Positions 5,916-38,537 of a DNA stretch of 50,369 bases are shown piece by piece. Under the pieces are notes generated by a model. That model did not search any database. It was not told the DNA's origin and saw only the letters and a list, made by a program, of their open reading frames with translations. This DNA is from Elusimicrobia bacterium RIFCSPLOWO2_12_FULL_59_9 (lineage in GTDB: Bacteria > Elusimicrobiota > Elusimicrobia > O2-12-FULL-59-9): contig MGUX01000066.1 of assembly GCA_001800185.1 (NCBI GenBank), forward strand, positions 1 to 50,369. The letters are read 5' to 3'. Both the position numbers and the translations under genes were made by a program. How positions within the stretch are numbered: the first letter of the stretch is position 1; each line of letters begins with the position of its first letter.

Positions 5916-7274
5916 TTAATGCGAAAGTTCTTGCTCCTTCACTTCCCAGACGGTGAGGATGGGCAACAACCGGGTGAATAATAGAAAGAGCAGGGCAAAG
6001 CCGGCGAACCAGGCCGCCGTAATGGACCACTCCACCCAACTGGGGGTGTAATGGGACATTCCCCAAGAAAGGTAGGGGCGCGCCCCGCTGGGAACGATAA
6101 TGCTGTACCTTTCCAGCCACATGCCGATATTGATGACTATGCAGACCCAGGCGAGGTTGCGGACGGTTCTCAGCGGCTTGATGGCCAAGACGGGAAGGGG
6201 AATTAAGAAACAGCAGGCGAACATGGTCCAGAAAAGCCAGGCATACTCGCCAAAAAACTTGGCGTTAAAGACCGCCATGTGGGCCGTCTCGCGGCCATAA
6301 AAGGTCGTGATAAACTCCAAAAAGGTGAAGTAAAACCAGAAACAGCACAGGGCCAGCAGAAACTTCCCGATCCTATCGAAATGGTCGTCGGTAAGATAGG
6401 CGTGCAGGCGGAAGAATCTCCGGATAGCCAGCATGGCCACGATGACGGTGGCAACTCCCGAATAGATGGCGCCCACGACGAAATAGGGTCCGATCACCGC
6501 GGTGTGCCAGCCGGGCTTGGTGGTCAAGCCGAAAACAAATGAGACGTTTGTATGGACTGAGATGACAAGGCAGAATAGGAAGACCGACATTCCTCCCAAG
6601 ATTTTGTGGAGCATCTTCCATTGGGCCTTGGTTCCGGTCCAGCCCAGGGCCAATTTCCGGTAAATAAACACCCTGGCGGGATGAACCACCGTGGAAAGCC
6701 TGTCCCGGCAGAGAGCGATGTCGGGGATGAGAGCGAGATAGAAGTAAAGACATGAGGTCACCAGATAGGTCGAAATGCAGACCACATCCCACAGTATGGG
6801 CGAGGTGAAGTGGGGATAGAGCAGGACGTTCAGCAGCCGCTCCGGCCGCCCAAGGTCCACGATCACGGAACTTGCGCCAAATGGCAGGGAAAACACCGTG
6901 ATGGCCTCCGCAGCGCGGGTGAACGGTCTGCGCCACTCGGTTTCCGTGATCCGCAATATGGAGGATATCAGGGTCCCCGCATGGGAGATGCCGATAAAGA
7001 AGACGAAATTGACCAAGTAGATTCCCCAGAAGACGGGAACGTTAAGTCCCGTTACCTTAAGTCCATTTTTGACCTGCCAAGCCCAGGCTGAGAGACCCCA
7101 AAGAAAAATGCAAGCCAGGACCGCTGCCGCCAGCCAAAAACCTTTTCCTGGTTTCTCAATCAGGGGCTTGAGCATTATAGATTCCAAATTCGCCTCGCTG
7201 GACTTCGCATCCGTCCAGCCCCCTTTCCAACCAGTCAAGGTGTAATCCACATCCCCACTGCCGGGTCGCATCAC
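5916..7274 (-). CDS. NrfD/PsrC-family integral membrane quinone-interacting subunit (ACIII ActC-like)
   Basis: 452 aa with about 10 TM helices. It has the motif PVFWGIYLVNFVFFIGISHAGTLIS, shared with the paralog at 21391-22959. Its start overlaps the stop of the FeS gene. Confidence 0.85.
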   Translation of the reverse strand: MMRPGSGDVDYTLTGWKGGWTDAKSSEANLESIMLKPLIEKPGKGFWLAAAVLACIFLWGLSAWAWQVKNGLKVTGLNVPVFWGIYLVNFVFFIGISHAGTLISSILRITETEWRRPFTRAAEAITVFSLPFGASSVIVDLGRPERLLNVLLYPHFTSPILWDVVCISTYLVTSCLYFYLALIPDIALCRDRLSTVVHPARVFIYRKLALGWTGTKAQWKMLHKILGGMSVFLFCLVISVHTNVSFVFGLTTKPGWHTAVIGPYFVVGAIYSGVATVIVAMLAIRRFFRLHAYLTDDHFDRIGKFLLALCCFWFYFTFLEFITTFYGRETAHMAVFNAKFFGEYAWLFWTMFACCFLIPLPVLAIKPLRTVRNLAWVCIVINIGMWLERYSIIVPSGARPYLSWGMSHYTPSWVEWSITAAWFAGFALLFLLFTRLLPILTVWEVKEQELSH

Positions 7275-8077
7275 CCCTCCCTCAAATAAATCACTTTCGG
7301 TTTTGTCCCAAGCTCCTCCAGGAACCTGTAAGCCCTGTGGCTGTCGGCAAGCCGGGAAACCTCGCTTTCTGGATTATTGAGATCCCCAAACGCGATGGCC
7401 TGGGCCGGACAGGCCGCCTTACAGGCAGGGACGTAGTCCCTTTCTTGGATCTCACGGCCCTCCTCCCGGGCCTTGTCCCTCGCTCTTTGAAGGCGCTGAT
7501 GACAGAACAGGCATTTCTCAACCACGCCTTTGTAACGGACTGAAACATCGGGGTTGAACGACTGGTTTGCTTCCGCGGGCCATTGGGGCTCGCCCCAATT
7601 GAAGAACTTGCAGGTGTAAGGGCAGGCATTGACGCAGTATCGGCAGCCGATGCAGCGGTCGTAAACTTGCCCCACAATCCCTTCCGTGTTCATGAACGTG
7701 GCCGACGTAGGACACACCCGGGTGCAAGGAGGGTCCTCGCACTGCTGGCAAGGCATGGGGATTAAACTCTGGCGGACATGGGAGCCCTCTCCTTCGGTCC
7801 TCGGAAGTATCTTCAGCCATCGGATGACTCTGCCCATGGCGGCTTCTTCGGGACTGCCCAGCATCTGGTTGTTTTCGACGGAACAGGCTACCACGCAACT
7901 CTGGCAACCCGTACAGCGATCCAGGTCGATCACCATGCCCCAGCGGTGCTTGCCCCGGGCCTGAACGATTTCCCCTTCGCTGCCGTCGGAGGCGAAGGCG
8001 CGTGGGACAAAAACCAGAAGCCCGCCGGCGAAAGCCGCCAGCCGCTTCAATAAATTTCTTCGATTCTCAGGCTCCAT
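7271..8077 (-). CDS. Tat-exported 4Fe-4S ferredoxin-type subunit (ActB2/PsrB/NrfC-like)
   Basis: 268 aa with the twin-arginine signal ENRRNLLKRLAAFAGG. Four Cys clusters are present: CTGCQSCVVAC, CQQCEDPPC, CIGCRYCVNACP and CLFC...CKAACP. Confidence 0.9.
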   Translation of the reverse strand: MEPENRRNLLKRLAAFAGGLLVFVPRAFASDGSEGEIVQARGKHRWGMVIDLDRCTGCQSCVVACSVENNQMLGSPEEAAMGRVIRWLKILPRTEGEGSHVRQSLIPMPCQQCEDPPCTRVCPTSATFMNTEGIVGQVYDRCIGCRYCVNACPYTCKFFNWGEPQWPAEANQSFNPDVSVRYKGVVEKCLFCHQRLQRARDKAREEGREIQERDYVPACKAACPAQAIAFGDLNNPESEVSRLADSHRAYRFLEELGTKPKVIYLREG

Positions 8078-15580: not shown

Positions 15581-17127
15581 GGCTTAATCGCTGTCCTCCA
15601 AGGAAACCGGACGCGGAAGCAGCTTCCCTTTCCGCGAGCGCTTTCGACCTTGATTTCCCCGCCGAGGGATCGGACGAGGGCCAGGCTGATGGAAAGGCCC
15701 AGGCCCGTGCCTTGCTCATGGGACTTCGTCGTGTAGAAGGGATCAAAGATCTTGTCCAGAAACTCCTCGGAAATTCCCGGGCCGGTGTCCGCGATGCTCG
15801 CTGATATCCACCCATCCGCGAGATGGCTCTCGACCTTGAGCGCACCCCCCCGCGGCATGGCATCGATGGCGTTGTTGAGGATATTTAGAAAGACATGCAG
15901 CAGGTCATTGCGCCGCGATTCGATTTTGGGCAGGTCTTCCGCCAAGGTCTCTTCCATGATGATGCCGGCCCGTGAAACTCGTCCCGACAAGATGTAAAGA
16001 GCCTCGGAAAGCACATCATTGAAGTCCGTGGGGGATTTTGGCTGGAGGTGGGGTTTGGAGAGGCTGAGCAGACTTCGGACGACGTTTCCCACGCGATCCG
16101 CCTGCCGGTCCACGATCTCCAGGGTTTCCTTGAGGAACTCCGGCGCCGCATATTCAGCGGCCCCCGACCGCGCCAGCTTCATGCGGGTGGAGATGATCCC
16201 GATGGGGTTATTGACCTCATGGGCGATATAGGCCACGAGTTGCCCCAGCGCGCCGAACTTTTCAGCCTGAAGGAGCCGCTGGTTGCTGGCGCGAAGACGC
16301 TCCATGATGGTCGTGGTAAAAAAGGTCGAGCCGCCCAGCAGGATTAAAAATGTGCCGGTCGTGCCCAACACGAACGGCAACTGATGAGACGCATGAGCGG
16401 CTTGCGCGCCATGCCCCTCATGGGGAAAAATAGCCAGGGTATAGTGGGGCAAGAGCCGGAAATACTCTCCGAAAGCGGCGAAAAGGAAGAACGCGGCGAT
16501 CAGCGCCGAGACCAGGTAGGCGTCTCTCTTGGGCAGGAGTATTCCCGCAATGATGACGTGGAATATATAGATGACAAAGAGGGGATTTTCGAGTCCCCCG
16601 GAGAAATGAAGCAGATGCGTGAGGATAACAAGGTCGGTGAGGATGAGCCACAGCATGCAGGACCGGAAGTTCCCGAACTCATTCTTCGTCCAATGGAAGA
16701 CCAGGCTTGTCAACCAGAGCGCCATGCATCCCATCCACAGATACGGCGTCACGGCGTCCGGAAGGAGGCGCAGCACGTGCTGCGAGACGAATATCGCGGC
16801 GGTCGTAACGGCGGCGACGATCCAGCGCATGCTGAGAAACCAGGCGATCTGCTCGCCGATCCCTTCCGAACCGACCAGAACGCCGACGTCTTGAGAGAAC
16901 AATCGTTGTGTCCGGCGGTTCAACCACCAAGCCGCTGCGAAGGTCCCAACAAGAGTGGCGCTGATTCCTCTTAAGATGTGGAGCCGGTGAAGCGTCTCCA
17001 TCTCCGCGCCTGGCAGCCCAAAGCGCTCGAGCAGTTCATAACCGCCGAATATCACGAGGATGACGGTGGCGATGATAGCTGGAAGCTGCCATCTGTCGTT
17101 AACGGCTGGTTCAACCATGTGTTCCAT
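15577..17127 (-). CDS. Sensor histidine kinase with a polytopic membrane sensor domain
   Basis: It has a HisKA H-box (IAHEVNNPIG) and HATPase N and G boxes (LNNAIDAM, GTGLGLSI), plus about 8 N-terminal TM helices. The start is set at ATG 17127 (MEHMVEP) because the ORF-track start at 17259 lies upstream of the sigma54 promoter. It overlaps the regulator start by 4 nt. Confidence 0.9.
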   Translation of the reverse strand: MEHMVEPAVNDRWQLPAIIATVILVIFGGYELLERFGLPGAEMETLHRLHILRGISATLVGTFAAAWWLNRRTQRLFSQDVGVLVGSEGIGEQIAWFLSMRWIVAAVTTAAIFVSQHVLRLLPDAVTPYLWMGCMALWLTSLVFHWTKNEFGNFRSCMLWLILTDLVILTHLLHFSGGLENPLFVIYIFHVIIAGILLPKRDAYLVSALIAAFFLFAAFGEYFRLLPHYTLAIFPHEGHGAQAAHASHQLPFVLGTTGTFLILLGGSTFFTTTIMERLRASNQRLLQAEKFGALGQLVAYIAHEVNNPIGIISTRMKLARSGAAEYAAPEFLKETLEIVDRQADRVGNVVRSLLSLSKPHLQPKSPTDFNDVLSEALYILSGRVSRAGIIMEETLAEDLPKIESRRNDLLHVFLNILNNAIDAMPRGGALKVESHLADGWISASIADTGPGISEEFLDKIFDPFYTTKSHEQGTGLGLSISLALVRSLGGEIKVESARGKGSCFRVRFPWRTAIKP

Positions 17128-23783: not shown

Positions 23784-25813
23784 AGCTTCACCTCGGTCCC
23801 TTCCTCGCCTATCTCCAACGGGTTGGAGCCCAAGCCCTTGGCCCAGCGTCCGTAGCCGGCATGTCCCAATCCAACGGGGAGGCTGACCACTCCGGGCATG
23901 GCCGCCCGGGACAGACGCGCCCTGGCCTTGATCTTCCCTCTCCGGGATTCGACCCAGATCGCTTCTCCGTCCGATAGCCCCGGAAGCGAAGCGGTTTCAG
24001 GGTGCATCTCCGCCCAGGTCTCCCACGCCTCCTGCGTCTGAGGTCCCGCGACGCTTTGCAGATAGGGGAGATGCGCGCCCTCTCCGAAGGAAAAGGCGAG
24101 GGGCGCGTAAAGGTGCAGATGGAGAGGAAACCCCCCGTCCTCCCGCGCCTTTTTAACGTCCTGCAGTTTCAAAATGTCCGTCAATGCGTCGAACTCAAAC
24201 TTTCCCGAGCGGGTCGCATGGGGCTTGCCGGAGGCAGCAGCGCTCATCTCCCGCCAGATCTTTCCCCCGCTGCTTTCATGGAACATCTTTTCTGCCCGCA
24301 GTTTCTTCATATGGCCCATGACGTAGGAGTCAAAATCCGCTGGAACTCTCGTCCCAGCCAAAGCTCGCGTCAACGCCAGGAATATATCCCCGGGGTCCTT
24401 GGTCGCGTAGAGCGGCGCCACCGCTTCGGGGGCGGCGCCCAAGACCGCGCTCCCGTTCGCGGACACATGGAAAGAACAGTGGCCTCTTTCCAGGGGCGTG
24501 TGGCAGGGCAACACGAGATCGGAAGATAGCGCCGTCTCGTTTAGAAAAGAAGAGACCGTCGCCACAAAGGGCGTTTTCGCCACGATCTCTTTCCATCCCG
24601 ACGGCGACAGAAAGAGAGGATCGACACGATCGACCAGAAGCAGTTCCGGCGGCCGCGCCTGGAGACTTTGGTCGGCCAAGCCGTCCGCCCAAAAGCCTTC
24701 CCGTCCCTCCATCCCTGAGAATACGCCCCCCGTGCCGATGTTCCCCAAGAGGGCGTTGAGCGCGTGGACTGCCATCTGGGTCAGCAACGGCCCGCGGTTG
24801 GTGATGGCTGCCGCGGGTTTGAGGCTGGAGAGCTTGACCGCCAGCAAACGGATCTCCTTTTCGGGGACTTCCGTTGTCTTTGAAACATCATCAAGAGAAA
24901 GGGCGTCCAGGCTCTTTTTGAAGGCCTCGAAACCCCGGGACTGCGCGTGGATGAAGGCCTTGTCGTAGGTCTCATTGGCGATCAACTGCTTGGCCAGGAT
25001 CAACGCCAGAAGACCTTCCGTCCCGGGCCGGACGGGTACCCATTGGTCCGCCTTGCCCGCGGTCACGGAGAACCTCGGCTCGATCTGGACGATTTCGGCG
25101 CGGTCTCGAGACGGCCCTCGCCGAAGCTGCGCGAAAGCCATCTGCGCCTCGACCGGAGACGGGTAGGACTGGAGCCAGTCGAATCCAAAGGAGACCAGGA
25201 GCTTTGCGCGGCTCATGTGGAAAGCCACTCGGCGGCTTCCATGCATTCTCTCGTAAGCGTCGCTGGGAAACTCAGACTTGGGAAAGCCTAGGGCGAAAAA
25301 ATTATCCTTGCCTATGGAATCGGCCAAGCCCCGGAGCGCCTCGCCTTGTATGTCCCACGCCCGCGCCCGCGTTAGCGCGGCCAGCGGCTTAATCTTGCTC
25401 CCTGACTTCGCGCGGGTGATCTTCTCCGAGAGGGCGCGCAGGGCCTCATCCCAGGAGATCTCTTTCCACTCCCCGGATCCACGGGGGCCGCGTCTGAGCA
25501 GGGGAGTCCTCAGTCGATCTGGATGGTAGAGCTCTTGCAGGGAGGCCGCGCCCTTGGGACAGAGCCCGCCCTGATTGATCGGATGATCCGGGATCCCCGA
25601 GATTCCGACGGCATGGCCGTCGACCTTGCGCACGCGGATGCCGCAGCCCGCCGGACACAACCCGCAGATGGTGTAGGCGAAGCCCTCTTCCCCCATGGGC
25701 GGCGGCGCGTCTTCCTTGGGCGTGAGCACCGCCTTCTTGGCCCAGACCGGCAAGGCGGAGGTCAAGCCAGAGAAAATGCCGAACTTGAAGAAATTTCTTC
25801 GGGATATTTCCAT
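23771..25813 (-). CDS. Molybdopterin-oxidoreductase-like large subunit (ActB1-like), paralog of 8067-10217
   Basis: 680 aa with the Tat signal ISRRNFFKFG. The FS0 motif CGLCPAGC...LCPKG is present, and the protein is collinear with the 716-aa paralog. Confidence 0.85.
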   Translation of the reverse strand: MEISRRNFFKFGIFSGLTSALPVWAKKAVLTPKEDAPPPMGEEGFAYTICGLCPAGCGIRVRKVDGHAVGISGIPDHPINQGGLCPKGAASLQELYHPDRLRTPLLRRGPRGSGEWKEISWDEALRALSEKITRAKSGSKIKPLAALTRARAWDIQGEALRGLADSIGKDNFFALGFPKSEFPSDAYERMHGSRRVAFHMSRAKLLVSFGFDWLQSYPSPVEAQMAFAQLRRGPSRDRAEIVQIEPRFSVTAGKADQWVPVRPGTEGLLALILAKQLIANETYDKAFIHAQSRGFEAFKKSLDALSLDDVSKTTEVPEKEIRLLAVKLSSLKPAAAITNRGPLLTQMAVHALNALLGNIGTGGVFSGMEGREGFWADGLADQSLQARPPELLLVDRVDPLFLSPSGWKEIVAKTPFVATVSSFLNETALSSDLVLPCHTPLERGHCSFHVSANGSAVLGAAPEAVAPLYATKDPGDIFLALTRALAGTRVPADFDSYVMGHMKKLRAEKMFHESSGGKIWREMSAAASGKPHATRSGKFEFDALTDILKLQDVKKAREDGGFPLHLHLYAPLAFSFGEGAHLPYLQSVAGPQTQEAWETWAEMHPETASLPGLSDGEAIWVESRRGKIKARARLSRAAMPGVVSLPVGLGHAGYGRWAKGLGSNPLEIGEEGTEVKLWKA

Positions 25814-25817
25814 TTCG

Positions 25818-26318
25818 TTACTTATGGCAAGCCAGGCAGTCGTTGGTCACCTTCATCCTGTGGTGGCAGCCCATACAGCGCGCCATGCTGATAGTCACCG
25901 CTTGCCGCGTGACCGGCGCCTCCACCTTGGACATGTCGCCGTGACAGAGGGCGCAGTCCAGTTTGGCTAACCCCACGTGCCTGCGGTGGGAAAAATAGAC
26001 GTGGGTCGGCACGTTGTAGACCTTCTTCCAGGGGATCGGCTTGTTGGCCGAGACATAGTCGCGCACGGCTTTGGCTCTTGGATTTTCGTCATCGGAGGTG
26101 TGGCAGGCCGCGCAGACCTCCACCGTGGGAAGCCCTCCGCGCGCCTTCCCATCAGCGATGCCTGTGTGGCAGCCGGCGCACTCCAATCCCAGGGCGATGT
26201 GCTTCTTGTGGTTGTAAGCGACGGGTTGTTTTTTAGATCCCGACTGGTAACCGGCCAGCAAAAGCCAGACGAGGCCGATGAAGGCTAGGGACAAAACGGC
26301 CGCCGCAAGGTCTTTCAT
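25818..26318 (-). CDS. Membrane-anchored pentahaem cytochrome c (ActA-like), paralog of 10235-10744
   Basis: 166 aa with an N-terminal TM helix. Five CxxCH motifs are present (CAGCH, CAACH, CALCH, CMGCH, CLACH). Confidence 0.85.
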   Translation of the reverse strand: MKDLAAAVLSLAFIGLVWLLLAGYQSGSKKQPVAYNHKKHIALGLECAGCHTGIADGKARGGLPTVEVCAACHTSDDENPRAKAVRDYVSANKPIPWKKVYNVPTHVYFSHRRHVGLAKLDCALCHGDMSKVEAPVTRQAVTISMARCMGCHHRMKVTNDCLACHK

Positions 26319-27331: not shown

Positions 27332-28570
27332 TTACCGCTTTCCCAGGGACTTCATATAAGCCACCAAAGCCCGGATCTCATCGTCTCGAAGATCGAGCTT
27401 TGGCATGGAAGAGCCGGGGCTCACGGCCTGGGGGTCGCGGAAGTGTTTCGTGAGCCACTCTTCTGCCTTCTTGCCGGCCACTTTATCCAATTCAGGTCCA
27501 ACGACCCCGCCCCTTGCATTGAGCTTGTGGCAGTAGGCGCAGTTCAAGTTGCGGTAAAGCCTCCGCCCCGCCAAAACCAGGGGGTCCTTTTCGGCGGCGG
27601 CAGCGGCAGGCGGGCCGTTGAATTTCTGGGCGGCGATGTAGCGGGCCAAGTCCTCTATCTGCGTGTCGGCCAACTGGCCCTTGAACCCCGGCATGGTGGA
27701 GGACTGGTTCAGTTGGGTAGGATCCAGGATATATTTCTTGATGTAGGTTTTGTCGCGAGCGGAACCGATGAGAGAGAGGTCGGGACCCCCGTCCCCGCCC
27801 TCCCCGCCGATGCGGTGGCAGGCGGCGCAATTGTCGGCAAAGAGTTTGGGCGCTTCGCCCGTGAAGGGCCCGCCGGCCAGAGACTTCATGTAGGCGACCA
27901 GGGCTTGAATCTCATCATCCAAAAGATTGAGTTTGGGCATCTCGGATCCCGGGTTCGCGGCTTTGGGATCGCGAAGGTGTTTTACCAACCAATCCTCCGT
28001 CTCCTCCCCGACCACCTTGTCCAACTCCGGGCCGATCTCACCCCCTTTGCCTCCAATCCTGTGGCAGTAGGCGCAGTTCAAAGCGCGGTAAAGCCGCGTC
28101 CCGGCCATCACCGCCGGGTCTTTTTCGATCACCGGGTTGAGCATGGGGCTTTTGGCGCCGTAATAGGTCAGAAGCCCAATGCCCGTCAAAGCGGCCAAGC
28201 CCAGGCTCAGCCAAAAAGGCCGATTCAAGGGGTGCCTTTCAGGCGAGCGGTCCAAGAAGGGCAGAAACAAGAGCACGCCGGCCGCCGCGCCCGGAAGGAT
28301 GACGGCGGCCACGGCTTCCAATTTACCGGGAAAGAATTTGAGGGCCTGGAATATGAACAGAAAATACCATTCAGGGCGAGGATTGTAGGTGCTGTCGGTG
28401 GGGTCGGCCAGATCTTCCAGAGGGGCGCCGAGTTTCAAGGCCAGAACGCAAAGAGCCGCCAGGATCAAGGCCGCGACGCAGATATCCTTGAACACCGCAT
28501 ACGGGAAAAAAGACTGGCCTTTTTCCTTCAATTCCTTGTATTGCTTTAAGTAATCCTGTCTCCAACTCAT
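27332..28570 (-). CDS. Cytochrome b C-terminal (subunit IV-like) domain fused to three monohaem cytochrome c domains
   Basis: 412 aa. The N-terminal part has TM helices and the PEWYF motif (YNPRPEWYFLFIFQ). Then come CAYCHRIGGKGG, CAACHRIGGEGG and CAYCHKLNARGG. Haem domains 1 and 3 are clear internal duplicates. Confidence 0.85.
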   Translation of the reverse strand: MSWRQDYLKQYKELKEKGQSFFPYAVFKDICVAALILAALCVLALKLGAPLEDLADPTDSTYNPRPEWYFLFIFQALKFFPGKLEAVAAVILPGAAAGVLLFLPFLDRSPERHPLNRPFWLSLGLAALTGIGLLTYYGAKSPMLNPVIEKDPAVMAGTRLYRALNCAYCHRIGGKGGEIGPELDKVVGEETEDWLVKHLRDPKAANPGSEMPKLNLLDDEIQALVAYMKSLAGGPFTGEAPKLFADNCAACHRIGGEGGDGGPDLSLIGSARDKTYIKKYILDPTQLNQSSTMPGFKGQLADTQIEDLARYIAAQKFNGPPAAAAAEKDPLVLAGRRLYRNLNCAYCHKLNARGGVVGPELDKVAGKKAEEWLTKHFRDPQAVSPGSSMPKLDLRDDEIRALVAYMKSLGKR

Positions 28571-28573
28571 GGA

Positions 28574-29248
28574 TTATTGGTCTTTGCGGCGCGGAGTTTC
28601 CGAGATGCCGTGCCAGACCACCAAAAACAGGTGCAGGCCCACAAACAGAATCAGCAGCGCCGGAAGCACCAGCACATGGAAAGCGTAGAAACGGCTCAGG
28701 GTCAGCGCCCCCAAAACATCTCCGCCCTTAAGCACCTTTCCTATGTAGGGTCCCAGCGTGGGAACCTGCGCCGCGATATTGGTTCCTACGGCGGTCGCCC
28801 AGTAGGCTTTCTGGTCCCAGGGCAGCAGATAGCCTGTAAAACTGAAGCCCATGACCACCATAAACAAGGCGACGCCCGCCATCCAAGTTCCTTCGCGGGG
28901 ATACTTGTAGGCCCCCATAAAAAACACTCTCAGCATGTGCAGGGCGACGATCACCACCATGAAGCTGGCTCCCCAGTGGTGAAGTCCGCGCACGAAACTT
29001 CCCAGGAGCACTTCCCGTTCTATGTAGCGGATGGAATCGTAGGCGTGGTCCGGCGAGGGGACATAGTTCATCGCCAGAAGCATGCCGGTCAGAGCTTGAA
29101 CGGCGAACAGGAGCAGGCTGGCGCTGCCCAAGGTGTAGAGCCATGCCTGCCAGCCGGACGCTTCCGGGATGCGGCGGTCCAAAAGGGCTTCCTTCACCTT
29201 TTTCCAACCGGTGCGCTCGTCCAATTCGCTCAAAAATTTAGCGATCAT
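28574..29248 (-). CDS. Cytochrome b (b6-type N-terminal four-helix subunit)
   Basis: 224 aa with the His-bearing helices GLHHWGASFMVVIVALHMLRVF and RFYAFHVLVLPALLILFVGLHLFLV. The YLLPWDQ motif (consensus LPWGQ) is also present. Confidence 0.9.
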   Translation of the reverse strand: MIAKFLSELDERTGWKKVKEALLDRRIPEASGWQAWLYTLGSASLLLFAVQALTGMLLAMNYVPSPDHAYDSIRYIEREVLLGSFVRGLHHWGASFMVVIVALHMLRVFFMGAYKYPREGTWMAGVALFMVVMGFSFTGYLLPWDQKAYWATAVGTNIAAQVPTLGPYIGKVLKGGDVLGALTLSRFYAFHVLVLPALLILFVGLHLFLVVWHGISETPRRKDQ

Positions 29249-29736
29249 GCCTTGCCGGATTCGAGAGCTTGAGGGATGATTTGCAGGCGCTCGCGCACCA
29301 CTTTGACGGGAAAGCGGTCCAGGGGTCTGGGAGGAGGGCCGGAGACGACGCGGCCGTCAACGGCGAAAGTGGCCGTGTGGCAGGGGCACAAAAATTGCTT
29401 TTTGTCGGCATCCCAGCGGTAAGGGCATCCCAGATGGGTACAGCGGGGGTCGAAGGCCACAAAATCCCTTCCATTGGAGGTCAAAAACCAGGCCGAAGAC
29501 CTGGTTTCCACCGTCATCCAGCCGTCTTTTTTTCTCTGGGTAAATTCCAATTTGACCGGGGCGCCCCGGGAAACTTCCCGTACCGAGCCGACATCGATCC
29601 AGCCCTCGTCTTCTTTTTTGAAGGCGGGAGACAGAAAATAGCCCGTCCCCGTTCCTCCCAGCACCAAGCCGATGGCCGCCGAGAGCGAGGCGATGATCCA
29701 CTGCAAAAACGTACGGCGGCTCACTTCATTTTCCAT
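29245..29736 (-). CDS. Rieske [2Fe-2S] iron-sulfur subunit
   Basis: 163 aa with a Tat-like signal (SRRTFLQW) and a TM anchor. Rieske boxes CTHLGC and CPCHTATF are present. Confidence 0.9.
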   Translation of the reverse strand: MENEVSRRTFLQWIIASLSAAIGLVLGGTGTGYFLSPAFKKEDEGWIDVGSVREVSRGAPVKLEFTQRKKDGWMTVETRSSAWFLTSNGRDFVAFDPRCTHLGCPYRWDADKKQFLCPCHTATFAVDGRVVSGPPPRPLDRFPVKVVRERLQIIPQALESGKA

Positions 29737-30106: not shown

Positions 30107-31228
30107 CTACGGGGCGTGGCAGGTCCGGCAGACCGCATCGCCCTTGAACTTGACCGACTTATGCCGGCCGAAGTCATGGCAGGCGGTGCAGGACAGCAAC
30201 TGGGTGTGCTCAAGATGGGGCATGCTCTTGCCTTGATGGCGGACCGTCACGGGAGGAACTTTCACCCCGACTTTGCTGTGGCATAAGGTGGCGCAGAAGC
30301 CCCCCGAGATGAGGGGGCGCTCCGAGAGGTCCTGCAGGGAAGCGTCCAGCTTCTTGCCGGCGCGCGCGATCTCTTGGTCCGATTCCCGCAGAAGGCCGGC
30401 GGCCAGATAGATGTTGTGAACCGCGTGGGCTTCTTTGATCAAAGTCATTTTTTCCGCCGCCTGGGCCAGGTTCTTGCGAGCCTCCTTGAGCGGAGCCTTC
30501 CCAGATTCTTTTTCCTTGATGGCCAGCGCCGTTTGCGCCAGCGCCAGGTTTTCTTCAAGCTCCTGCAAAGTCTCAGCGATAAGCTGCTTGGAATCCGCGA
30601 CGATGCCCCGGTATTTTTCTCCGTGGCATTTGATGCAGCCCGCCTCCGTGGCTTTATATGTTTTTTCCGAGTGAGTGCGGCCGGTCTGGCTGTGCAGGTG
30701 GCAGCCGACGCAGTCCACATTGGCCAGGTACATGGGGCTTGGCATCGCCTCCTTGCGCCCGCCCGCCTTGCCGGCGTAGAAAGCCGCCTGAACCTGGTGC
30801 ATTTCGAGATGGCATTTGGAGCAGTCGAGCGGAAGGCTCTCATGGGGCGTCTGGTGGTTGGCCTCCGTAAATCCATGCTTCATCTCTTTGTGGCAATGGA
30901 AGCAGGCCACGTTGTGCTTGGTGACGTGGTTTTCGTGGATAAACGCCGTGTCGGAGAATTTTGCCAGCTTCTCGGGCTGATTGTGGCAGGTGTAGCAGCG
31001 GTCCTGAGTCGCCTCGCCGCTTCCCTGGATCACGTTCAAATGGCAGTTTTGGCAGGAAACGCCTTTCTGCGTCACGAAAGCCTTATGGTTGTAGGTGATG
31101 TTGCCGATCATAAATGATTTTTTGGGAAGTTCATGGCATCCCAGGCAGCCGGCGACCGGTTTGAGTTCCCTGCCGCTTTTTGTTCCCATAAAGTGGCAGA
31201 GGTAGCAGGTGTCCCAGGTGACCTCCAC
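30107..31228 (-). CDS. 11-haem c-type cytochrome domain with no signal peptide; same frame as the upstream NapC/NirT-like ORF across one TGA
   Basis: 373 aa starting at a GTG. It has ten CxxCH motifs plus one CX3CH (CATLCH) and no N-terminal hydrophobic segment. The minus strand reads CHSQIVV-TGA-AAA-CAT-GTG(EVTWDTCYLCH), all in one frame. Confidence 0.7.
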   Translation of the reverse strand: MEVTWDTCYLCHFMGTKSGRELKPVAGCLGCHELPKKSFMIGNITYNHKAFVTQKGVSCQNCHLNVIQGSGEATQDRCYTCHNQPEKLAKFSDTAFIHENHVTKHNVACFHCHKEMKHGFTEANHQTPHESLPLDCSKCHLEMHQVQAAFYAGKAGGRKEAMPSPMYLANVDCVGCHLHSQTGRTHSEKTYKATEAGCIKCHGEKYRGIVADSKQLIAETLQELEENLALAQTALAIKEKESGKAPLKEARKNLAQAAEKMTLIKEAHAVHNIYLAAGLLRESDQEIARAGKKLDASLQDLSERPLISGGFCATLCHSKVGVKVPPVTVRHQGKSMPHLEHTQLLSCTACHDFGRHKSVKFKGDAVCRTCHAP

Positions 31229-31234
31229 ATGTTT

Positions 31235-31795
31235 TCAGACCACGATTTGGGAATGGCAGGAGACGCATCTGAGTCGTCTTCCGCGGCGGACGCCCAATAA
31301 GTGAGGTGTGTGGTCGAAATGGATGCCTTTTTCGCTGATGACTTTTCCCTGCAGGAGGCGGGTGGAGTGGCAGCCCGGGCGCAGGCAGGAAGAGTCTTCG
31401 ATCTCGGCGAAGGGTTTGGAAGAGTAGGTTCTCGTCACGTATTTGGCTACTTGGGAAAGCGCCTGGAATTTCTTCCATAGAAGCGTCCTCGGGGAGCCGG
31501 GCGGATAGTGGCATTCCACGCAGGCGACGAATTTGTGCTTGGACGTCGCCCAGGCGTTGTAATAGGGCTCCATGATGTGGCAGGAGCGGCAGAACCTCGG
31601 GCTTTCGGAATACTTCGCTAGTCCCGCCAGAACCACGACCGCGGCCAGAAAAGCGCTTCCCAAAAGCGCGAAGAAGCGCGGCCTTAAGTGGACGCTCCAT
31701 ATCTTCTCGGCCGGGACGTGGATGCCGGCGGCGTAGAGCCAGCGTCTCCACCAGGCGGCTCGTCCATAGAGCGGTTTTTCTTCCCCCTGAGTCAT
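31235..31795 (-). CDS. NapC/NirT/NrfH-family membrane-anchored tetrahaem quinol dehydrogenase-like protein
   Basis: 186 aa with an N-terminal TM helix (FFALLGSAFLAAVVVLAGL). It continues FCRSCHIMEPYYNAWATSKHKFVACVECH, then CLRPGCH (CX4CH) and CVSCH. It ends at a TGA that is in frame with the next ORF. Confidence 0.8.
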   Translation of the reverse strand: MTQGEEKPLYGRAAWWRRWLYAAGIHVPAEKIWSVHLRPRFFALLGSAFLAAVVVLAGLAKYSESPRFCRSCHIMEPYYNAWATSKHKFVACVECHYPPGSPRTLLWKKFQALSQVAKYVTRTYSSKPFAEIEDSSCLRPGCHSTRLLQGKVISEKGIHFDHTPHLLGVRRGRRLRCVSCHSQIVV

Positions 31796-33633
31796 CTCAT
31801 TTTTCTCCTTACGTAGCCGGTAAGCCAGGCCCAGTTCATCGGGTAAACGTCGGGATCAAAAATGACCCAATAGAAGTGCCATGCCGCGATGGCGGCGCAG
31901 GCCAGGATGGCCTCATAGAAATGGACGGCCGTGGCCAGGTCGGATACCCACATGGGAAAGTGCTTGAGGGTGAAATCGGAAAATACGAGAATCCCTCCCG
32001 AAATCACCATCACCACGGAGCCCCAGATGAGGGCCCAATACTCCGACTTCTCGATGTAGTTGTAGGGGGTGGAAAGATGCGGCGGAACGCGGCGCAGCCC
32101 CGCATTGAAGGCCGGCATGCGCAGGGCCTGCAGGACGTCTTCGGGTCTTGGCAGCATGGACTTGAGGACCTCTCTGCCCCTGGGGCTGAAGGCGAGATAG
32201 GCCGCATGGTAGACTCCGAGCAGGCAGAACAGGAGGGCGGCCCAGCGGTGGAAAGAGCGCCTTAAATCTTCCGCGGCGAGGGCCAGGGGATAAGCCCACC
32301 AGGTCTCCGAATATTTGAGGGCGAAGCCGGTGTAGCCTAGCCAGAAGAAAGCGAGCAGCAAAACGCCGTGCTGCAGGCGTTCGTTGAGGCTCATGCGCAT
32401 TTCATCCTGCGGGTGGCCATGGGGCGGCGGCGGGCCGGCGCGCAGAAGCTTTTTGACAAAGTCCAGGCCGTTATGTAATATCATCCCGCCGATCACCAGC
32501 GGGATGAGGATCAGGTAGAACCAGGTGGCGGCCCGCAGCGACCAGTGCTGGTTGGCGGGCGGAGGCCCATGAACGTAGCCATGGGCAAGCTGCGCCCCCG
32601 CGCCGGGATGGCATTTCCCGCAGGTGTTGCTGAGGTTGGAGCGGTGAGTGGACGAGCGGGGATCGGTATGGGCCAGCACGTCATGAAAACCGTGGCAGGA
32701 GGCGCAGTTGGCCACCATCAGGTCGCCTCTTTGGTAAGCCAGGCCGTGGTAGGTGTCCATATAGGTCTTGAGGCGGTCCACCGGAAGGTCGAACTTGCGC
32801 GTCAGCCTTTCGGAGGCGTGGCAGCCGGCGCAGGTTTTGGTGATGGCGCCGGTCCAACTGGAGGAGAAGGGGTCTTTGGGGGAGCGGATGGTATGCTCGC
32901 CATGGCAGTTCGTGCACACCGGCGCCTCCTTGATGCCCGCGCGTGTGGCCTGACCGTGGATGCTGACCTGGTAGGCTGAAAGAGCGTTGTTGTGGCAGCG
33001 GCCGCAGGTTTCAGGGATGTTGCGCCAGAAAATGCGGCTTGAGCTGTTGGCGGCGCCGTGCAGGTCGTGAGAGCCGTGGCAATCGCTGCAGACGGCGGCG
33101 TTGATTTTTCCTTGAGCGAAGGCCTCGCCGTGAACCGTATGAGCGTAGGAATCGACGGGCTGTAGCTCCGACAGCTTGAATTTTTCCATCCGCTTCAGGT
33201 CCTTATGGCAGCGGCCGCAGGTGTCCGGGATGTTCTTGCGGTTGACGGGAGATTGCGGATTTCTGGAGTTGAGCAAGGTGTGGGTCCGTCCGTGGCAGTC
33301 TTTGCAGGCCGCCGCTTCGCTCAGGCCCCGCGCCACGGCCTGGCCGTGGTCGGAGTTCATGTAAATTTGGGACTCGATGCGGTGGCAGGTTTTGCAGGAG
33401 ACCGGAGCGAGCTTCTCCGGATGCGGCAGATTGGCGGCGTCCGCGTGGCAGGAAATGCACAGATGCCGGCCGTGGATGGAGGCTTTGTGGCTTTTGAAGT
33501 CCACGCGGGGCGCTCCCATCAGCCCCTCGGAATGGCAAGCCATACAGTCCTCGTTTTGCTGCCCCCAAGCGGGGAGGCCGGTCGACAGGATGGCCAGGAC
33601 CCAAACGCTCGACAGCGCGGCTTTGATAGTCAT
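31792..33633 (-). CDS. CbcL-like fusion: periplasmic 11-haem cytochrome c domain plus C-terminal dihaem cytochrome b (FdnI/HydC-type) membrane domain
   Basis: 613 aa with a signal peptide and 11 CxxCH motifs in the first roughly 345 aa. About 5 TM helices with conserved His follow (LQHGVLLLAFFW, FHRWAALLF, AVHFYEAILA). Confidence 0.8.
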   Translation of the reverse strand: MTIKAALSSVWVLAILSTGLPAWGQQNEDCMACHSEGLMGAPRVDFKSHKASIHGRHLCISCHADAANLPHPEKLAPVSCKTCHRIESQIYMNSDHGQAVARGLSEAAACKDCHGRTHTLLNSRNPQSPVNRKNIPDTCGRCHKDLKRMEKFKLSELQPVDSYAHTVHGEAFAQGKINAAVCSDCHGSHDLHGAANSSSRIFWRNIPETCGRCHNNALSAYQVSIHGQATRAGIKEAPVCTNCHGEHTIRSPKDPFSSSWTGAITKTCAGCHASERLTRKFDLPVDRLKTYMDTYHGLAYQRGDLMVANCASCHGFHDVLAHTDPRSSTHRSNLSNTCGKCHPGAGAQLAHGYVHGPPPANQHWSLRAATWFYLILIPLVIGGMILHNGLDFVKKLLRAGPPPPHGHPQDEMRMSLNERLQHGVLLLAFFWLGYTGFALKYSETWWAYPLALAAEDLRRSFHRWAALLFCLLGVYHAAYLAFSPRGREVLKSMLPRPEDVLQALRMPAFNAGLRRVPPHLSTPYNYIEKSEYWALIWGSVVMVISGGILVFSDFTLKHFPMWVSDLATAVHFYEAILACAAIAAWHFYWVIFDPDVYPMNWAWLTGYVRRKMR

Positions 33634-33703: not shown

Positions 33704-33748
33704 GGAAGGGTCTGCGACCGGTTTCGGCTTTAAACCGGAGTGAGGCGC

Positions 33749-34303
33749 ATGAAAATATTTTCCATAAAAAACGGATGGATAGGCGCTCTGACGGCGGCTG
33801 CGGGACTCAATCTGGCGAGCTGCAAGAAGCCTCCGCAGGCTTCGCCCGAGCCGCGCTTCAGCGCGGAGCAGTTTGAGGCGCGCTTTTATTACGATCTCGG
33901 AGCCGCGGAGATCGACATCAGCTCATATCCTAAGAAACAGCAGGACGGCTACGCCGTTTTCGCCAGGACGTGCTCTCAGTGCCACACTTTGGCGCGGCCC
34001 ATCAACGCTCCTTTCGCCGTTCGTAAAGATTGGGAAAGATACATCCAGCGCATGCATATCCGGACGGAGAGCCGGCCCGGCACCGGCATATCCAAAGCCG
34101 AAGCCGCCGTCGTCCTGGATTTTTTGGTTTACGATTCCAAGATTCGTAAACTGGATAACAAAAGCGAATTCGCGGCCAAGACGGAGGAACTGCGCCGGCT
34201 TTTTGATGAGGTGGTGAAGGAACGCGACAGGCTCAATCTGGGGAAAGTCGAAGGCAAGGCGCGCCCCCCCGGCCCGTATACGGGAGACAAGCCCCGGCCT
34301 TGA
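33749..34303 (+). CDS. Small monohaem cytochrome c lipoprotein, family copy 3
   Basis: ATG 33749 lies 8 nt after GGAG. The signal MKIFSIKNGWIGALTAAAGLNLASC carries the lipobox LASC. The core is YPKKQQDGYAVFARTCSQCHTLARPINAPF...FLVYDSKIRK. Confidence 0.75.
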   Translation: MKIFSIKNGWIGALTAAAGLNLASCKKPPQASPEPRFSAEQFEARFYYDLGAAEIDISSYPKKQQDGYAVFARTCSQCHTLARPINAPFAVRKDWERYIQRMHIRTESRPGTGISKAEAAVVLDFLVYDSKIRKLDNKSEFAAKTEELRRLFDEVVKERDRLNLGKVEGKARPPGPYTGDKPRP

Positions 34304-34382: not shown

Positions 34383-35348
34383 ATGAAGAAAACCATCCAT
34401 TGGATCGCATCGGTTATGGCTGTGTTGACCGTCCTGTTGTTTAGCCGGGGCATAGAACCCCGCGTATCCGCCCAAGAGGGGGAAGCCGTCTCAACCGCCC
34501 CGTCCACCGAGCAGCCCGCGGCAAAAACCGCCGAATTTGTGGGCGCTGAAACCTGCATCGCCTGCCACGCGGACAGGGCTTCCTTCAAGGATAATATCCA
34601 TGCCAGAGCCTGGCCGGCCGCCAAAGGGATCGATTTTTCAAAATCCTGCGAGACCTGCCACGGGCCCGGCTCCTTGCACGGCGGGGCTGCCGGGGACAAG
34701 GGCAATGCCGATTTTTTCACCATCAAAAATCCGAAAACCCTTTCCAGCAAGAACGTTGCAAAATTGTGCCTGGAGTGCCACCAGGGCGGTAATCGCTTTC
34801 ATTGGGACGGTGGTTCCCATGATTCGCGGGACGTTTCCTGCCTTTCCTGCCACAGCCTGCACCACGCCAAGAGCAAGGAGGAAAAATTCCTCCTGGCGAA
34901 AACCACGGAAATGGAAACCTGCTATCAATGCCATAGCGTGAAAAAGGCGCAGTTTCAGCGCTCCTCCCATATGCCTCTGCATGAGGGCAAGCTGACCTGC
35001 ACCAGTTGCCACAATCCCCACGGCAGCGTCGGCCCCACTTTGTTGAAGCAGGCTTCCGTCAACGAAAACTGCCTTTCCTGCCACGCCGAGAAAAAAGGGC
35101 CGTTTTTGTGGGAGCATGCCCCGGTCCGCGAGAACTGCTTGAACTGCCACACCCCTCACGGCTCGAAACATGAAAAGCTCCTTAAAACCAAGCGGCCCAG
35201 GCTTTGCCAGCAGTGCCACATCATCACGCGGCACCCTTCCACCGCCAGCACGCCCTCCAGTATTACCCTTGTGGGACGGAGCTGCACGGAGTGCCATTCG
35301 CAAATCCACGGGTCGAATCATCCCGCAGGCGTTCGCTTCCAGAGGTAA
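34383..35348 (+). CDS. Periplasmic decahaem cytochrome c of the MtrA/DmsE/MtoA/PioA family
   Basis: 321 aa with a signal peptide and ten CxxCH motifs. It has the family-typical C-terminus CTECHSQIHGSNHPAGVRFQR. An MtrB/PioB-like barrel gene follows immediately. Confidence 0.85.
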   Translation: MKKTIHWIASVMAVLTVLLFSRGIEPRVSAQEGEAVSTAPSTEQPAAKTAEFVGAETCIACHADRASFKDNIHARAWPAAKGIDFSKSCETCHGPGSLHGGAAGDKGNADFFTIKNPKTLSSKNVAKLCLECHQGGNRFHWDGGSHDSRDVSCLSCHSLHHAKSKEEKFLLAKTTEMETCYQCHSVKKAQFQRSSHMPLHEGKLTCTSCHNPHGSVGPTLLKQASVNENCLSCHAEKKGPFLWEHAPVRENCLNCHTPHGSKHEKLLKTKRPRLCQQCHIITRHPSTASTPSSITLVGRSCTECHSQIHGSNHPAGVRFQR

Positions 35349-35357
35349 GGAGGAAAT

Positions 35358-37541
35358 ATGCGTTTACAAAAAATCATCCCGGCCACGTTGGCAGCCCTCA
35401 TTTTGGCGCCCGCCGTATGGGCCTCCGACCCCAGCGTCAGTTTGGACTTCGGGGGACAGGCGGTTCGAGGCGACGTCGCCTCTTCCAAATTCGATGAGTA
35501 CATAGACATTCCGCGTGGATTTTACGTGGAAAGTTTGGGCTTGCGGAATTATGGAGACGATTATTATTTCCGGCTGGACGGAGCGAAGCCCGGATTTAAG
35601 GACCAGAGCCTGAACATCGAGACGGGCATTTGGGGACTCCATAAGTTTTCTCTCGGTTACGATCAAACTCCCCACAACCTGTCCAACAGCGCGCGGACGT
35701 TTCTCAGAAACGACGGGGAGGGGGTTTTCACGTTGCCGGACAATCTGCAATCAAGCTTGCAGACGTCCACCACCAACGCGGCGGGTTTCTTTCCGTGGGC
35801 GCCCGGCATTCCCTTAAGGGTGGACCGGACCAAGAGCAGCCTTGCCTACACCTACAGCCCGACGGGACCTTGGCGGGTCAATCTCGGCTACTCCGCTGAG
35901 AAGAAAGACGGGCAGAAGAACATCGGCGTAAACTTCGGTTTCCAGATCGCAGAGGCCCCGGAGCCAGTGGATTACCTGACTCAGGATCTAAACTTCGGGA
36001 CGGAGTATGTCGGCAAAACTCTGGGCTGGAGGGCGAATTACAACTTTTCAGCCTTCGCCAACGGCATTCACTCGTTGACGGTCGACAATCCGGTCAATTT
36101 GACCGATACCGCGGCGAGCGCCAGCGGGAGCTCCACTCCCGGCACGGCCCGGCTTGCGCTGCCTCCCAACAACCATTCCCACCAGTTCAGCACCGACTTT
36201 TCCGCAAAGACCACGGCCAAAAGCCATCTAAACGCCAACGCCTCCTTCACGTCTCTAAGGCAAAACGATCCCTTCCTGCCTCCGACCTCCAATGCGGTTA
36301 TTTTGAGCAAGGCCCGGGTGGCGGGCTTCGTGCCTCAATCGAGCCTGGACGGCATGGTCAACACCCTCAACGCGGCTTTGAGGTGGAATTGGAAGCCGGT
36401 AACCCCCGTGTCGGTGAACGTTCGCGCCAAGCACTACGACATCGACAACCGGACGCCCGAACTGACGCTCGAGCGGATTCCGTACGATTCTTCCTATTCC
36501 ACCGGAACCCCAACGAAGTCGTTTAAATACGGGAATGTCAGGCGGAGCCTTCCTTACAGCTACGATAAGACCAACGCCGGCGCCGACTGTTATTACTCCA
36601 TCGCCAAGCCTTTGAGCATGAAGCTGGCCTATGACTGGGAGAGGATAGGGTACGACTTTTTCGAGGCGAAGGCCACCCAGGAGGATATTTACGCAGTGTC
36701 CTTTAAGGCGGGTCCATTCTATGACTTGGTCGTGAGGCCGAGCTATCAATACGCGCGCCGCATCGTGAAGGATTATAACGAGGAGCTTCACTGGGCCGAG
36801 GAGTCATTCCCTCTGGGCGAGGGCACGGCTCTTGGGGAAATGCCGCAGTTGAGAAAATTTGACTTGGCGGGCCGCAAACGCCATAAGGTTACGGTGCGCG
36901 CCGACTGGGATCCGCTGGATTATCTCAATGCCGGAGTGGATTACGGCTTGACTAAAGACGATTATGACGCGGAATATGGGGTCCAGGACGGGCGGACTCT
37001 CTATTACTCGGTGGACGCAAGCGTTAGTCCCTCGGATAGGCTGGGCATTTACGCAGATTATAGCTGGGAACAGATGTCCGCATTCACCCGTTCCCGCTAT
37101 CGCAGTTCAACAGCCGACGATCTCGTTGCCAACGACTGGGCGGGAGTCCTCAAGGACACGGCCCATTCCGTGGATGTCGGCGTCCAATCCGTTTTGCTAA
37201 AAGACAAACTAGACGCGGATTTGGGCTGGGGCATGACCTATCTCAAGGGCCTGCAGCAGGCGAGCAATCCGGGCACCATCACCACCGCCAGCGCTTTGGC
37301 CACGGATTTCCCCAATACTTATTCTCGCCTGCAGAAGCTCCGCGCCAGCATGCGCTACCGCTGGTCTCAAAGCCTGACGGCCAGGCTTGGTTACGAGTAT
37401 CAGCGCTACACCGAAACCGACTGGTCGCAGGATGACTTGGAAGTCTATCAGAAGGATTGGGCCACCTCGGTGTTTCTGGGGGCCGCGCAGACCGGCTACG
37501 AGGCGCACTTGATTTCGTTGGGCCTGTCCTACGCGTTTTAA
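35358..37541 (+). CDS. MtrB/PioB/MtoB-family outer-membrane beta-barrel (porin partner of the decahaem cytochrome)
   Basis: 727 aa with a signal peptide (ALILAPAVWA). The N-terminal motif region is SSKFDEYIDIPRGFYVESL. Alternating beta-strand pattern runs throughout, with the C-terminal OMP signal LSYAF. Confidence 0.8.
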   Translation: MRLQKIIPATLAALILAPAVWASDPSVSLDFGGQAVRGDVASSKFDEYIDIPRGFYVESLGLRNYGDDYYFRLDGAKPGFKDQSLNIETGIWGLHKFSLGYDQTPHNLSNSARTFLRNDGEGVFTLPDNLQSSLQTSTTNAAGFFPWAPGIPLRVDRTKSSLAYTYSPTGPWRVNLGYSAEKKDGQKNIGVNFGFQIAEAPEPVDYLTQDLNFGTEYVGKTLGWRANYNFSAFANGIHSLTVDNPVNLTDTAASASGSSTPGTARLALPPNNHSHQFSTDFSAKTTAKSHLNANASFTSLRQNDPFLPPTSNAVILSKARVAGFVPQSSLDGMVNTLNAALRWNWKPVTPVSVNVRAKHYDIDNRTPELTLERIPYDSSYSTGTPTKSFKYGNVRRSLPYSYDKTNAGADCYYSIAKPLSMKLAYDWERIGYDFFEAKATQEDIYAVSFKAGPFYDLVVRPSYQYARRIVKDYNEELHWAEESFPLGEGTALGEMPQLRKFDLAGRKRHKVTVRADWDPLDYLNAGVDYGLTKDDYDAEYGVQDGRTLYYSVDASVSPSDRLGIYADYSWEQMSAFTRSRYRSSTADDLVANDWAGVLKDTAHSVDVGVQSVLLKDKLDADLGWGMTYLKGLQQASNPGTITTASALATDFPNTYSRLQKLRASMRYRWSQSLTARLGYEYQRYTETDWSQDDLEVYQKDWATSVFLGAAQTGYEAHLISLGLSYAF

Positions 37542-37556
37542 GAAGGAGGGAAACGC

Positions 37557-38537
37557 ATGAAACGGTTTGTCGCCTTATGCTTGTTGTTTTGCGTTTCCGG
37601 CGTCCGCGCGGCCGACAGCGGCAAGGGCAAGGAAGTTTTCGGCGCCAAATGCGCCTCCTGCCACGGCAAAGAGGCCAAGGGCAATCTTGCCATGGCCAAG
37701 ATGTTCAAGCTGGAGCCGGCGGCTTTGGACTTGGCGGACGAGGCGACCTTGACCAAGACCGACGATGAGCTTATTGCGATCGTGACCAAGGGAAAAAACA
37801 AGATGCCGGTATTTGAGGGCAAGCTTTCCAAAAAGGAGATTGCTGATTTGATCGCCTACCTGCGCGGGCTGGGAGGAGGCAAGGCCAAGGCTGCCAAGAA
37901 AGCCGATGGAGGGCCCGGCGCCAAGTTGTACGAGGCCAAGTGCGCCTCCTGCCACGGCAAAGACGGCAAGGGCAAAGAGGCCATGGCCAAGATGTTCAAG
38001 CTGGAGCCTGCGGCTTTGAATTTGATAGACGAGCCCACCTTGGCCCAAACTGACGAGGAACTGATCGCCACTACGACTAAGGGAAAGAACAAGATGCCGG
38101 CCTTCGAGGGCAAGCTCTCGGGCGAGGAACTCGCCGTCCTGGCCGCCTACATGCGCGAGCTGGGCGGGGGTGTGCCCAAGGCCGCCGGCGCGGGCGACGT
38201 GGAGGCCGGCGCCAAGCTCTATGAGGCCAAATGCGCGTCCTGCCACGGCAAAGACGGCAAGGGCAAAGAGGCCATGGCCAAAATGTTCAAGCTGGAGTTG
38301 GCGGCCCTGGACCTGATTGACGAGGGGAGCCTTTCTAAAACCGACAAAGAGCTCTTCGACCTCACGGCCGAGGGCATCAACAAGATGCCGGGCTATAAGG
38401 ACAAAATGAAGGCCGAAGAGATAGACGCCGTCATCGCCTATATGCGCTCGCTGGCTCCGGCACCGGTACCGGCGGAGGCGGCGCCCGAGGAAGAGGCAAA
38501 ACCTCAAGAGGGCGGGCAGGAGCCGGAAGGCGACTAA
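37557..38537 (+). CDS. Periplasmic trihaem protein made of three tandem class I monohaem cytochrome c domains (MtoD-like position)
   Basis: 326 aa with a signal peptide. It has three copies of KCASCHGK(D/E)(G/A)KG...KGKNKMP...(I/A)AY(L/M)R. The C-terminal tail is rich in Pro, Glu and Ala. Confidence 0.85.
   Translation: MKRFVALCLLFCVSGVRAADSGKGKEVFGAKCASCHGKEAKGNLAMAKMFKLEPAALDLADEATLTKTDDELIAIVTKGKNKMPVFEGKLSKKEIADLIAYLRGLGGGKAKAAKKADGGPGAKLYEAKCASCHGKDGKGKEAMAKMFKLEPAALNLIDEPTLAQTDEELIATTTKGKNKMPAFEGKLSGEELAVLAAYMRELGGGVPKAAGAGDVEAGAKLYEAKCASCHGKDGKGKEAMAKMFKLELAALDLIDEGSLSKTDKELFDLTAEGINKMPGYKDKMKAEEIDAVIAYMRSLAPAPVPAEAAPEEEAKPQEGGQEPEGD
37626..38498 (+). repeat. Three tandem 291-bp (97-codon) repeat units inside the cytochrome c gene
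   Basis: The TGCGC(C/G)TCCTGCCAC haem-motif anchors lie at 37650, 37941 and 38232, exactly 291 bp apart. There are long identical runs, for example ggcaaagacggcaagggcaaagaggccatggccaa. Confidence 0.9.

Follow-up and report, generated by a model that had tools for sequence, protein, structure and literature searches.

An in-frame TGA at a conserved glycine codon of a predicted 15-haem NapC/NirT-family cytochrome gene in an Elusimicrobia genome

Described relatives and architecture of the interrupted gene

The closest described relatives of the gene analyzed here are the tetrahaem quinol dehydrogenases NrfH, NapC, NirT and CymA, together with ImcH and CbcL/MtoC/MtrH, inner-membrane multihaem quinol oxidases of extracellular electron transfer that likewise possess a NapC/NirT-like region (PMC6295460). 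In the account of Zhong & Shi (2018, PMC6295460), ImcH spans the membrane with three TM helices, has 6–10 haem-binding motifs in total and carries a CX3CH motif adjacent to its membrane domain. The same paper describes CymA and CbcL/MtoC, and the 15-haem fusion considered below is absent from it. The stop codon within the gene has two kinds of precedent of its own. Bacterial selenoprotein genes, e.g., fdhF, also have an in-frame UGA within a redox protein. The second precedent is the nonsense pseudogene or split-gene annotation artefact in a metagenome-assembled genome (MAG): there, too, one substituted base puts a stop where a sense codon is conserved, the halves are annotated separately, and intact alleles occur in near-identical assemblies. 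The present case differs from these in nothing of kind. A literature search returned no paper naming Elusimicrobia bacterium RIFCSPLOWO2_12_FULL_59_9, the source of the DNA, and a paper on groundwater Elusimicrobia (10.1101/765248) mentions neither multihaem proteins, NapC or NrfH nor selenocysteine.

The window, i.e., the whole 50,369-nt stretch of DNA analyzed, carries a 186-aa ORF (31235..31795 including the stop, the protein ending in ...CVSCHSQIVV) and a 373-aa ORF (30107..31228) on the minus strand. Both lie in the same frame, and translation of the region yields 562 codons with a single internal stop (Table 1). Around this stop the minus strand reads ...TGC CAT TCC CAA ATC GTG GTC TGA AAA CAT GTG GAG GTC ACC TGG GAC ACC TGC TAC CTC TGC CAC, and the frame then goes on as KHVEVTWDTCYLCH... 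up to a TAG at 30107–30109. The ORF finder had placed the start of the 373-aa ORF at a GTG located two sense codons (AAA CAT) past the TGA. The junction segment can be written SQIVV-X-KHVEVTWDTCYLCHFMGTK, where X is codon 187. The same-frame layout of the two ORFs is not a matter of chance, since every homologue found runs continuously across the junction.

The 186-aa part scored 42 bits against the NapC/NirT family (PF03264), above the gathering threshold of 24.1, and has the N-terminal TM anchor and four haem sites of this family. The anchor, FFALLGSAFLAAVVVLAGL, occupies residues 41–59, with a Kyte–Doolittle mean of 2.49 over 19 residues. The NrfH model of NCBIfam (TIGR03153) aligned through its positions 12–136 of 138 to residues 50–184 with 70 bits; since this is below the cutoff of 134.2, the module is NrfH-like rather than an NrfH equivalog. 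A family profile search matched PDB entry 2j7a (D. vulgaris NrfH) at the N-terminus (E 7.5e-11) and the uncharacterised multihaem protein 6i5b at profile positions ~246–475 (E 2e-18), and Pfam places the C-terminal part among cytochrome c3/c7-type multihaem families. In the first 60 residues of the C-terminal part every 19-residue hydropathy window is at or below 0.43, and neither a signal peptide nor an anchor was found there. The haem motifs comprise three CX2CH and one CX4CH in the N-terminal part (CRSCH, CVECH, CLRPGCH, CVSCH) and ten CX2CH and one CX3CH (CATLCH) in the C-terminal part, 15 in both together. An exact-sequence look-up at NCBI retrieved the parts as separate entries, both annotated 'hypothetical protein': OGS04709.1 (186 aa) and OGS04708.1 (360 aa), the latter being the C-terminal part called from a later ATG.

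What the initial annotation had observed in this gene was confirmed, and its interpretation was partly supported. Its codon string around the TGA matches the sequence letter for letter, the sequence and ORF coordinates agree with its two same-frame ORFs separated by one TGA, and a recount of the haem motifs (4 + 11 = 15) gave the same numbers. The downstream ORF is, as stated there, without signal or TM segment, and this lack of an export signal supports the claim that the C-terminal half cannot work alone. Homology confirmed the joined protein that had been proposed, all homologues being one polypeptide: the ORFs are the predicted halves of a single NapC/NirT-type cytochrome of ~560 aa with 15 haems.

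The atypical CX4CH and CX3CH motifs flagged in the initial annotation are real haem-site candidates, invariant in the family, and are unrelated to the stop codon. In a 31-sequence alignment, all 15 haem motifs, these two included, are invariant columns. Within the NrfH-like module, CLRPGCH (residues 137–143; window 31385–31405, minus strand) is the third of the four haem sites; one homologue, P0004, has the canonical CLQCH at this place. The CX3CH site consists of C501, C505 and H506 and is invariant in 31 of 31 aligned sequences.

The protein shares with NrfH, NapC, NirT and CymA the single N-terminal TM anchor and the four haem sites in NrfH order (residues ~50–184), but here another 11-haem domain follows this module in the same polypeptide, which thus carries 15 haems. 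It departs from NrfH also in its score below the equivalog cutoff, in the CX4CH form of the third haem site and in the pairing of its gene with a CbcL/MtoC-like gene instead of nrfA. With one TM helix and 15 motifs, it is likewise set apart from ImcH by the published description of the latter. The 15-haem fusion does not obviously fit any of CymA, CbcL/MtoC and ImcH (PMC6295460), and the family apparently has no name. Its intact members are one-TM, 15-haem NapC/NirT fusions of about 560 aa, of which at least 586 stretches were confirmed in GTDB species representatives; by MAG label, the hosts are Elusimicrobia/Elusimicrobiota, Omnitrophota, Planctomycetota, Riflebacteria, Methylomirabilis (NC10), Anammoxibacter and others. 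Separately from the TGA, this intact family may deserve attention with regard to the membrane step in extracellular electron transfer.

Table 1. Features of the interrupted gene and its surroundings, in window coordinates
Feature	Position	Strand	Evidence
Whole gene, NapC/NirT-family 15-haem cytochrome, interrupted at codon 187	30107..31795	-	Continuous translation with a single stop; P0001 identical except Gly187; homologues all fused
Premature TGA, codon 187; GGA (Gly) in intact alleles	31235..31237	-	Alignment of the window with L001–L003
N-terminal fragment, residues 1–186: TM anchor and NrfH/NapC-like tetrahaem module; annotated as OGS04709.1	31238..31795	-	PF03264, TIGR03153, 2j7a, hydropathy
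C-terminal remainder, residues 188–562 and TAG: 11 haem motifs, no export signal	30107..31234	-	Pfam Cytochrom_c3_2 and Cytochrome_C7, motif count, hydropathy
Upstream partner, 613 aa: 11 CX2CH and cytochrome b membrane domain, CbcL/MtoC/MtrH-like	31792..33633	-	Pfam Ni_hydr_CYTB and multihaem domains
MtrA/MtoA-like periplasmic decahaem cytochrome	34383..35348	+	10 CX2CH; Paired_CXXCH_1, 130 bits
MtrB/PioB-type outer-membrane porin	35358..37541	+	PF11854, E 1.7e-111
Rieske / cytochrome b / cytochrome b C-terminal domain with c-type haems, bc-type complex just downstream	27332..29736	-	PF00355, PF00033, PF00032 and Cytochrom_C

Codon 187 in homologues and in near-identical assemblies

The alignment of orthologues, which had been suggested as a check, places Gly at the TGA site. 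A homology search with the joined sequence matched 1024 proteins (protein clusters), and in the best 120 of these, which were examined at position 187 (46–100% identity, 515–724 aa, all fused), Gly187 is invariant. The residue lies between haem motifs 4 and 5, within the best-conserved segment of the protein, CxSCH-SQ-xVV-G-x-H-xEVT-x-D-T-CxLCH, and two residues ahead of the invariant His189. Because a protein database would not reveal split genes, the codon was also read at the DNA level, independently of gene calling, in 80 genomic loci from GTDB species representatives. Gly was encoded in 77 of them, with GGC, GGA, GGT and GGG all in use, and Asn in the other three; neither a stop nor Cys was read at codon 187 in any of the 80, and the tblastn match ran uninterrupted through residues 180–195 in every case. 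The closest species representative (L004, Elusimicrobia NC_groundwater_1363, 94% identity) has GGA at this codon.

The three Asn codons (AAC) belong to Elusimicrobia MAGs (L060, L063 and L065) that make up a divergent subgroup, whose motif is CVSCH[GS]QV[MT]LNKHIEVNFKTCYLCH; Gly187 is, on account of these, not absolutely required across the family. Two tblastn matches contained in-frame stops, neither at codon 187: the one in L027 is the natural terminator, and the one in L063 lies in poorly aligned N-terminal sequence. In a Planctomycetota MAG (L067, match 6001–7662), tblastn showed the residues equivalent to ~170–184, with the fourth haem motif, to be missing and 18 residues to be inserted past the fifth haem motif, which may be genuine variation or may stem from a local assembly error or frameshift.

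The same comparisons bear on the reading of the locus as two genuine genes, one for a free NrfH-like subunit and one for a separate 11-haem subunit. The NrfH profile does end at residue 184, just ahead of the stop, and NCBI annotates two proteins. However, not one homologue is split at the junction among the best 120 proteins or the 80 loci, so the arrangement that the initial annotation had named as evidence for separate genes, i.e., two genes in orthologues with a signal peptide on the second, was encountered in none of them. Moreover, the stop interrupts the best-conserved contiguous motif rather than a linker, and the C-terminal part, which has no signal peptide or anchor, also lacks a Shine-Dalgarno-like purine run upstream of the GTG of the 373-aa ORF. 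We regard a two-gene layout as extremely improbable.

The top match of the homology search (P0001) is a protein of 562 aa, identical to the joined translation except that residue 187 is Gly. Three ENA metagenome assemblies carry its gene (ERZ4903185, ERZ27254759 and ERZ27254836; loci L001, L002 and L003), all of which read GTC GGA AAA against GTC TGA AAA in the window. The changed base is window position 31237, which on the plus strand is A in the window and C in the intact alleles, and on the sense strand T and G, respectively. It is the sole mismatch between L002 and the window in 12,649 nt and between L003 and the window in 8,103 nt; L001 has 19 differences in 16,406 nt, one of them at 31237. 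The TGA thus corresponds to one substitution, G to T on the sense strand, in a Gly codon whose background is otherwise identical. Close relatives have an intact allele that is one base away; the family conserves a sense codon at this position, which is GGA in all of L001–L004. Relative to the near-identical contigs, the cytochrome gene is the only one interrupted.

Of the other 18 differences of L001, 15 are clustered within ~750 nt (window 25394–26133), near the end of the fetched L001 sequence (15660–16406), which suggests strain variation or a neighbouring paralogous region.

Judged from these sequences, the TGA is a single-base change of the Gly codon that would be either a strain-level nonsense mutation or a base error. 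The T is not confined to the contig of the window. The same pair of 186-aa and 373-aa ORFs was found on a second assembly (ERZ28563660, ANAN16-1_SAMN03842440, scaffold_2563, 32,987 nt), from which the 6,561 nt fetched are an exact substring of the window. Since two assemblies with different contig ends (32,987 vs 50,369 nt) agree, the T is probably present in the reads of the study and did not arise from a single assembler; both TGA-bearing assemblies come from the same study and may derive from the same read set. A query of JGI metagenome_contigs with the exact pattern and N at the variable base gave 0 matches, and hence no further counts of T and G alleles.

A sequencing or consensus error would mean that the organism really has GGA and that the sense-strand T at 31237 came from low-coverage assembly or from damage to the library. 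That the window equals L002 and L003 at every other base is what one isolated error would produce. G-to-T is, moreover, a classic oxidative-damage artefact, and the change seen here is of this type. The '_9' in the MAG name, which under the usual Banfield-lab naming convention would indicate a coverage of only about 9x, points in the same direction, as a minority path or a local error is conceivable at such depth. On the other hand, the same T was recovered by a second assembly of the study with different contig boundaries, random errors in individual reads should not prevail in two consensus sequences, and damage artefacts are normally present at low allele fraction. We give a base error a small but appreciable chance, and infer that the T is a genuine allele and not a miscalled base. 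The TGA is probably a true and very recent nonsense allele (GGA to TGA); all explanations other than a nonsense allele and a base error are, even taken together, improbable.

Recoding at the TGA

Among the options listed in the initial annotation, recent nonsense mutation and sequencing error survive the comparisons, while selenocysteine and programmed readthrough do not. Insertion of selenocysteine at UGA187, directed by a downstream bacterial SECIS, had been suggested by the position of an in-frame UGA within a redox protein and by a hairpin that can be drawn 7 nt downstream. The aligned residue, however, is Gly in 120 of 120 proteins and 77 of 80 loci and never Cys or Sec, and GGA occupies codon 187 in other assemblies of essentially the same strain. 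The hairpin itself is the predicted minimum-free-energy structure of the 66 nt starting just before the UGA, at -14.3 kcal/mol. Dinucleotide shuffles of this segment reached -13.6 +/- 2.7 kcal/mol (z -0.27), and 76 of 200 folded at least as well, which argues against a stable stem-loop right after the UGA. An identical hairpin is present in the GGA alleles, where it simply codes for the conserved VEVTWDTCYLCH. In these respects, the lack of Cys/Sec orthologues, the lack of a significant hairpin and the Gly codon in the same strain, the gene differs from bacterial selenoprotein genes. ARAGORN detected no tRNA-Sec, nor any tRNA at all, in the window, and a scan with Rfam gathering thresholds gave zero matches; 50 kb is a weak test for a whole genome in both cases. 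The selenocysteine reading is almost certainly wrong.

A full-length protein could also be produced by leaky or programmed readthrough of the UGA, or under a reassigned code in which UGA means Gly (table 25) or Trp (table 4). UGA is the leakiest bacterial stop codon, and the aligned residue, Gly, coincides with what UGA encodes in table 25. Against this, TGA ends 24 of the 44 crude ORFs and is the most frequent genuine stop of the window, in agreement with the earlier statement that it serves as a normal stop elsewhere, and it forms ATGA stop/start overlaps, including the one at 31792–31795 by which the stop of the 613-aa gene overlaps the ATG of the interrupted gene. The GC content of the window (59.7%) is unlike that of the known lineages with reassigned codes. 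Code tables 4 and 25 were rejected on this stop-codon census and GC content.

As for readthrough under the standard code, no stimulatory structure is present and none of the 80 loci has a stop at codon 187. Near-cognate readthrough of UGA inserts Trp, which would here replace an invariant Gly, so that it is unlikely to rescue function. Readthrough and reassignment together are very improbable. As a recoding candidate the site has no importance, being neither a new selenoprotein nor a new readthrough signal.

Predicted consequence and genomic neighbourhood

Under the favoured reading of the TGA as a nonsense allele, a recent G-to-T change in the first base of an invariant Gly codon would have occurred in the Rifle-aquifer Elusimicrobia population of the source MAG, and no recoding would be involved. 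The gene would normally encode one 562-aa, membrane-anchored, 15-haem cytochrome of the NapC/NirT family. In the TGA allele, translation is predicted to end after residue 186, so that no more than a free tetrahaem anchor of NrfH-like type would remain; the 11-haem C-terminal part would either not be made or remain in the cytoplasm as an unmatured apoprotein. Attachment of c-type haem is periplasmic, and the 11-haem remainder would be lost because it is not exportable. The 186-aa fragment could in principle be inserted and matured, since the whole NrfH-like module is present.

We infer loss of function for the truncated product, although the 186-aa tetrahaem protein may still be functional. There is a slight chance that the TGA is a true segregating allele whose effect is not simple loss of function, with the free anchor used alone or with a low level of readthrough; a segregating functional allele of this kind would be a natural variant rewiring electron flow between the quinone pool and the neighbouring CbcL-like/MtrAB-like pathway. 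For annotation, OGS04709.1 and OGS04708.1 should be flagged as fragments of one gene.

The interrupted gene belongs to an electron-transfer cluster and is divergent from the MtrA-like and MtrB/PioB genes. It adjoins MtrA/MtrB-like genes and a CbcL-like gene. Of the 68 related loci with enough flank, 32 have a CbcL-like gene immediately upstream in the same orientation, and a Rieske gene is found in the flank of 20 of 70.

Two minor features of the surrounding region were also recorded. Between the CbcL-like and MtrA-like genes, the plus strand carries a 187-aa ORF (33740–34303) with one CXXCH motif (CSQCH), for which no Pfam match was found; the near-identical contigs retain it as a gene call of 184 aa, and it was found in only 2 of the 80 distant loci. 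Further along, window segments 37644–38006 and 37935–38297 are overlapping repeats of ~365 nt with ~80% identity. They lie inside a plus-strand gene that is called as 326 aa in the near-identical contigs and has repeated Cytochrom_C domains, and the repeat looks like an internal domain duplication.
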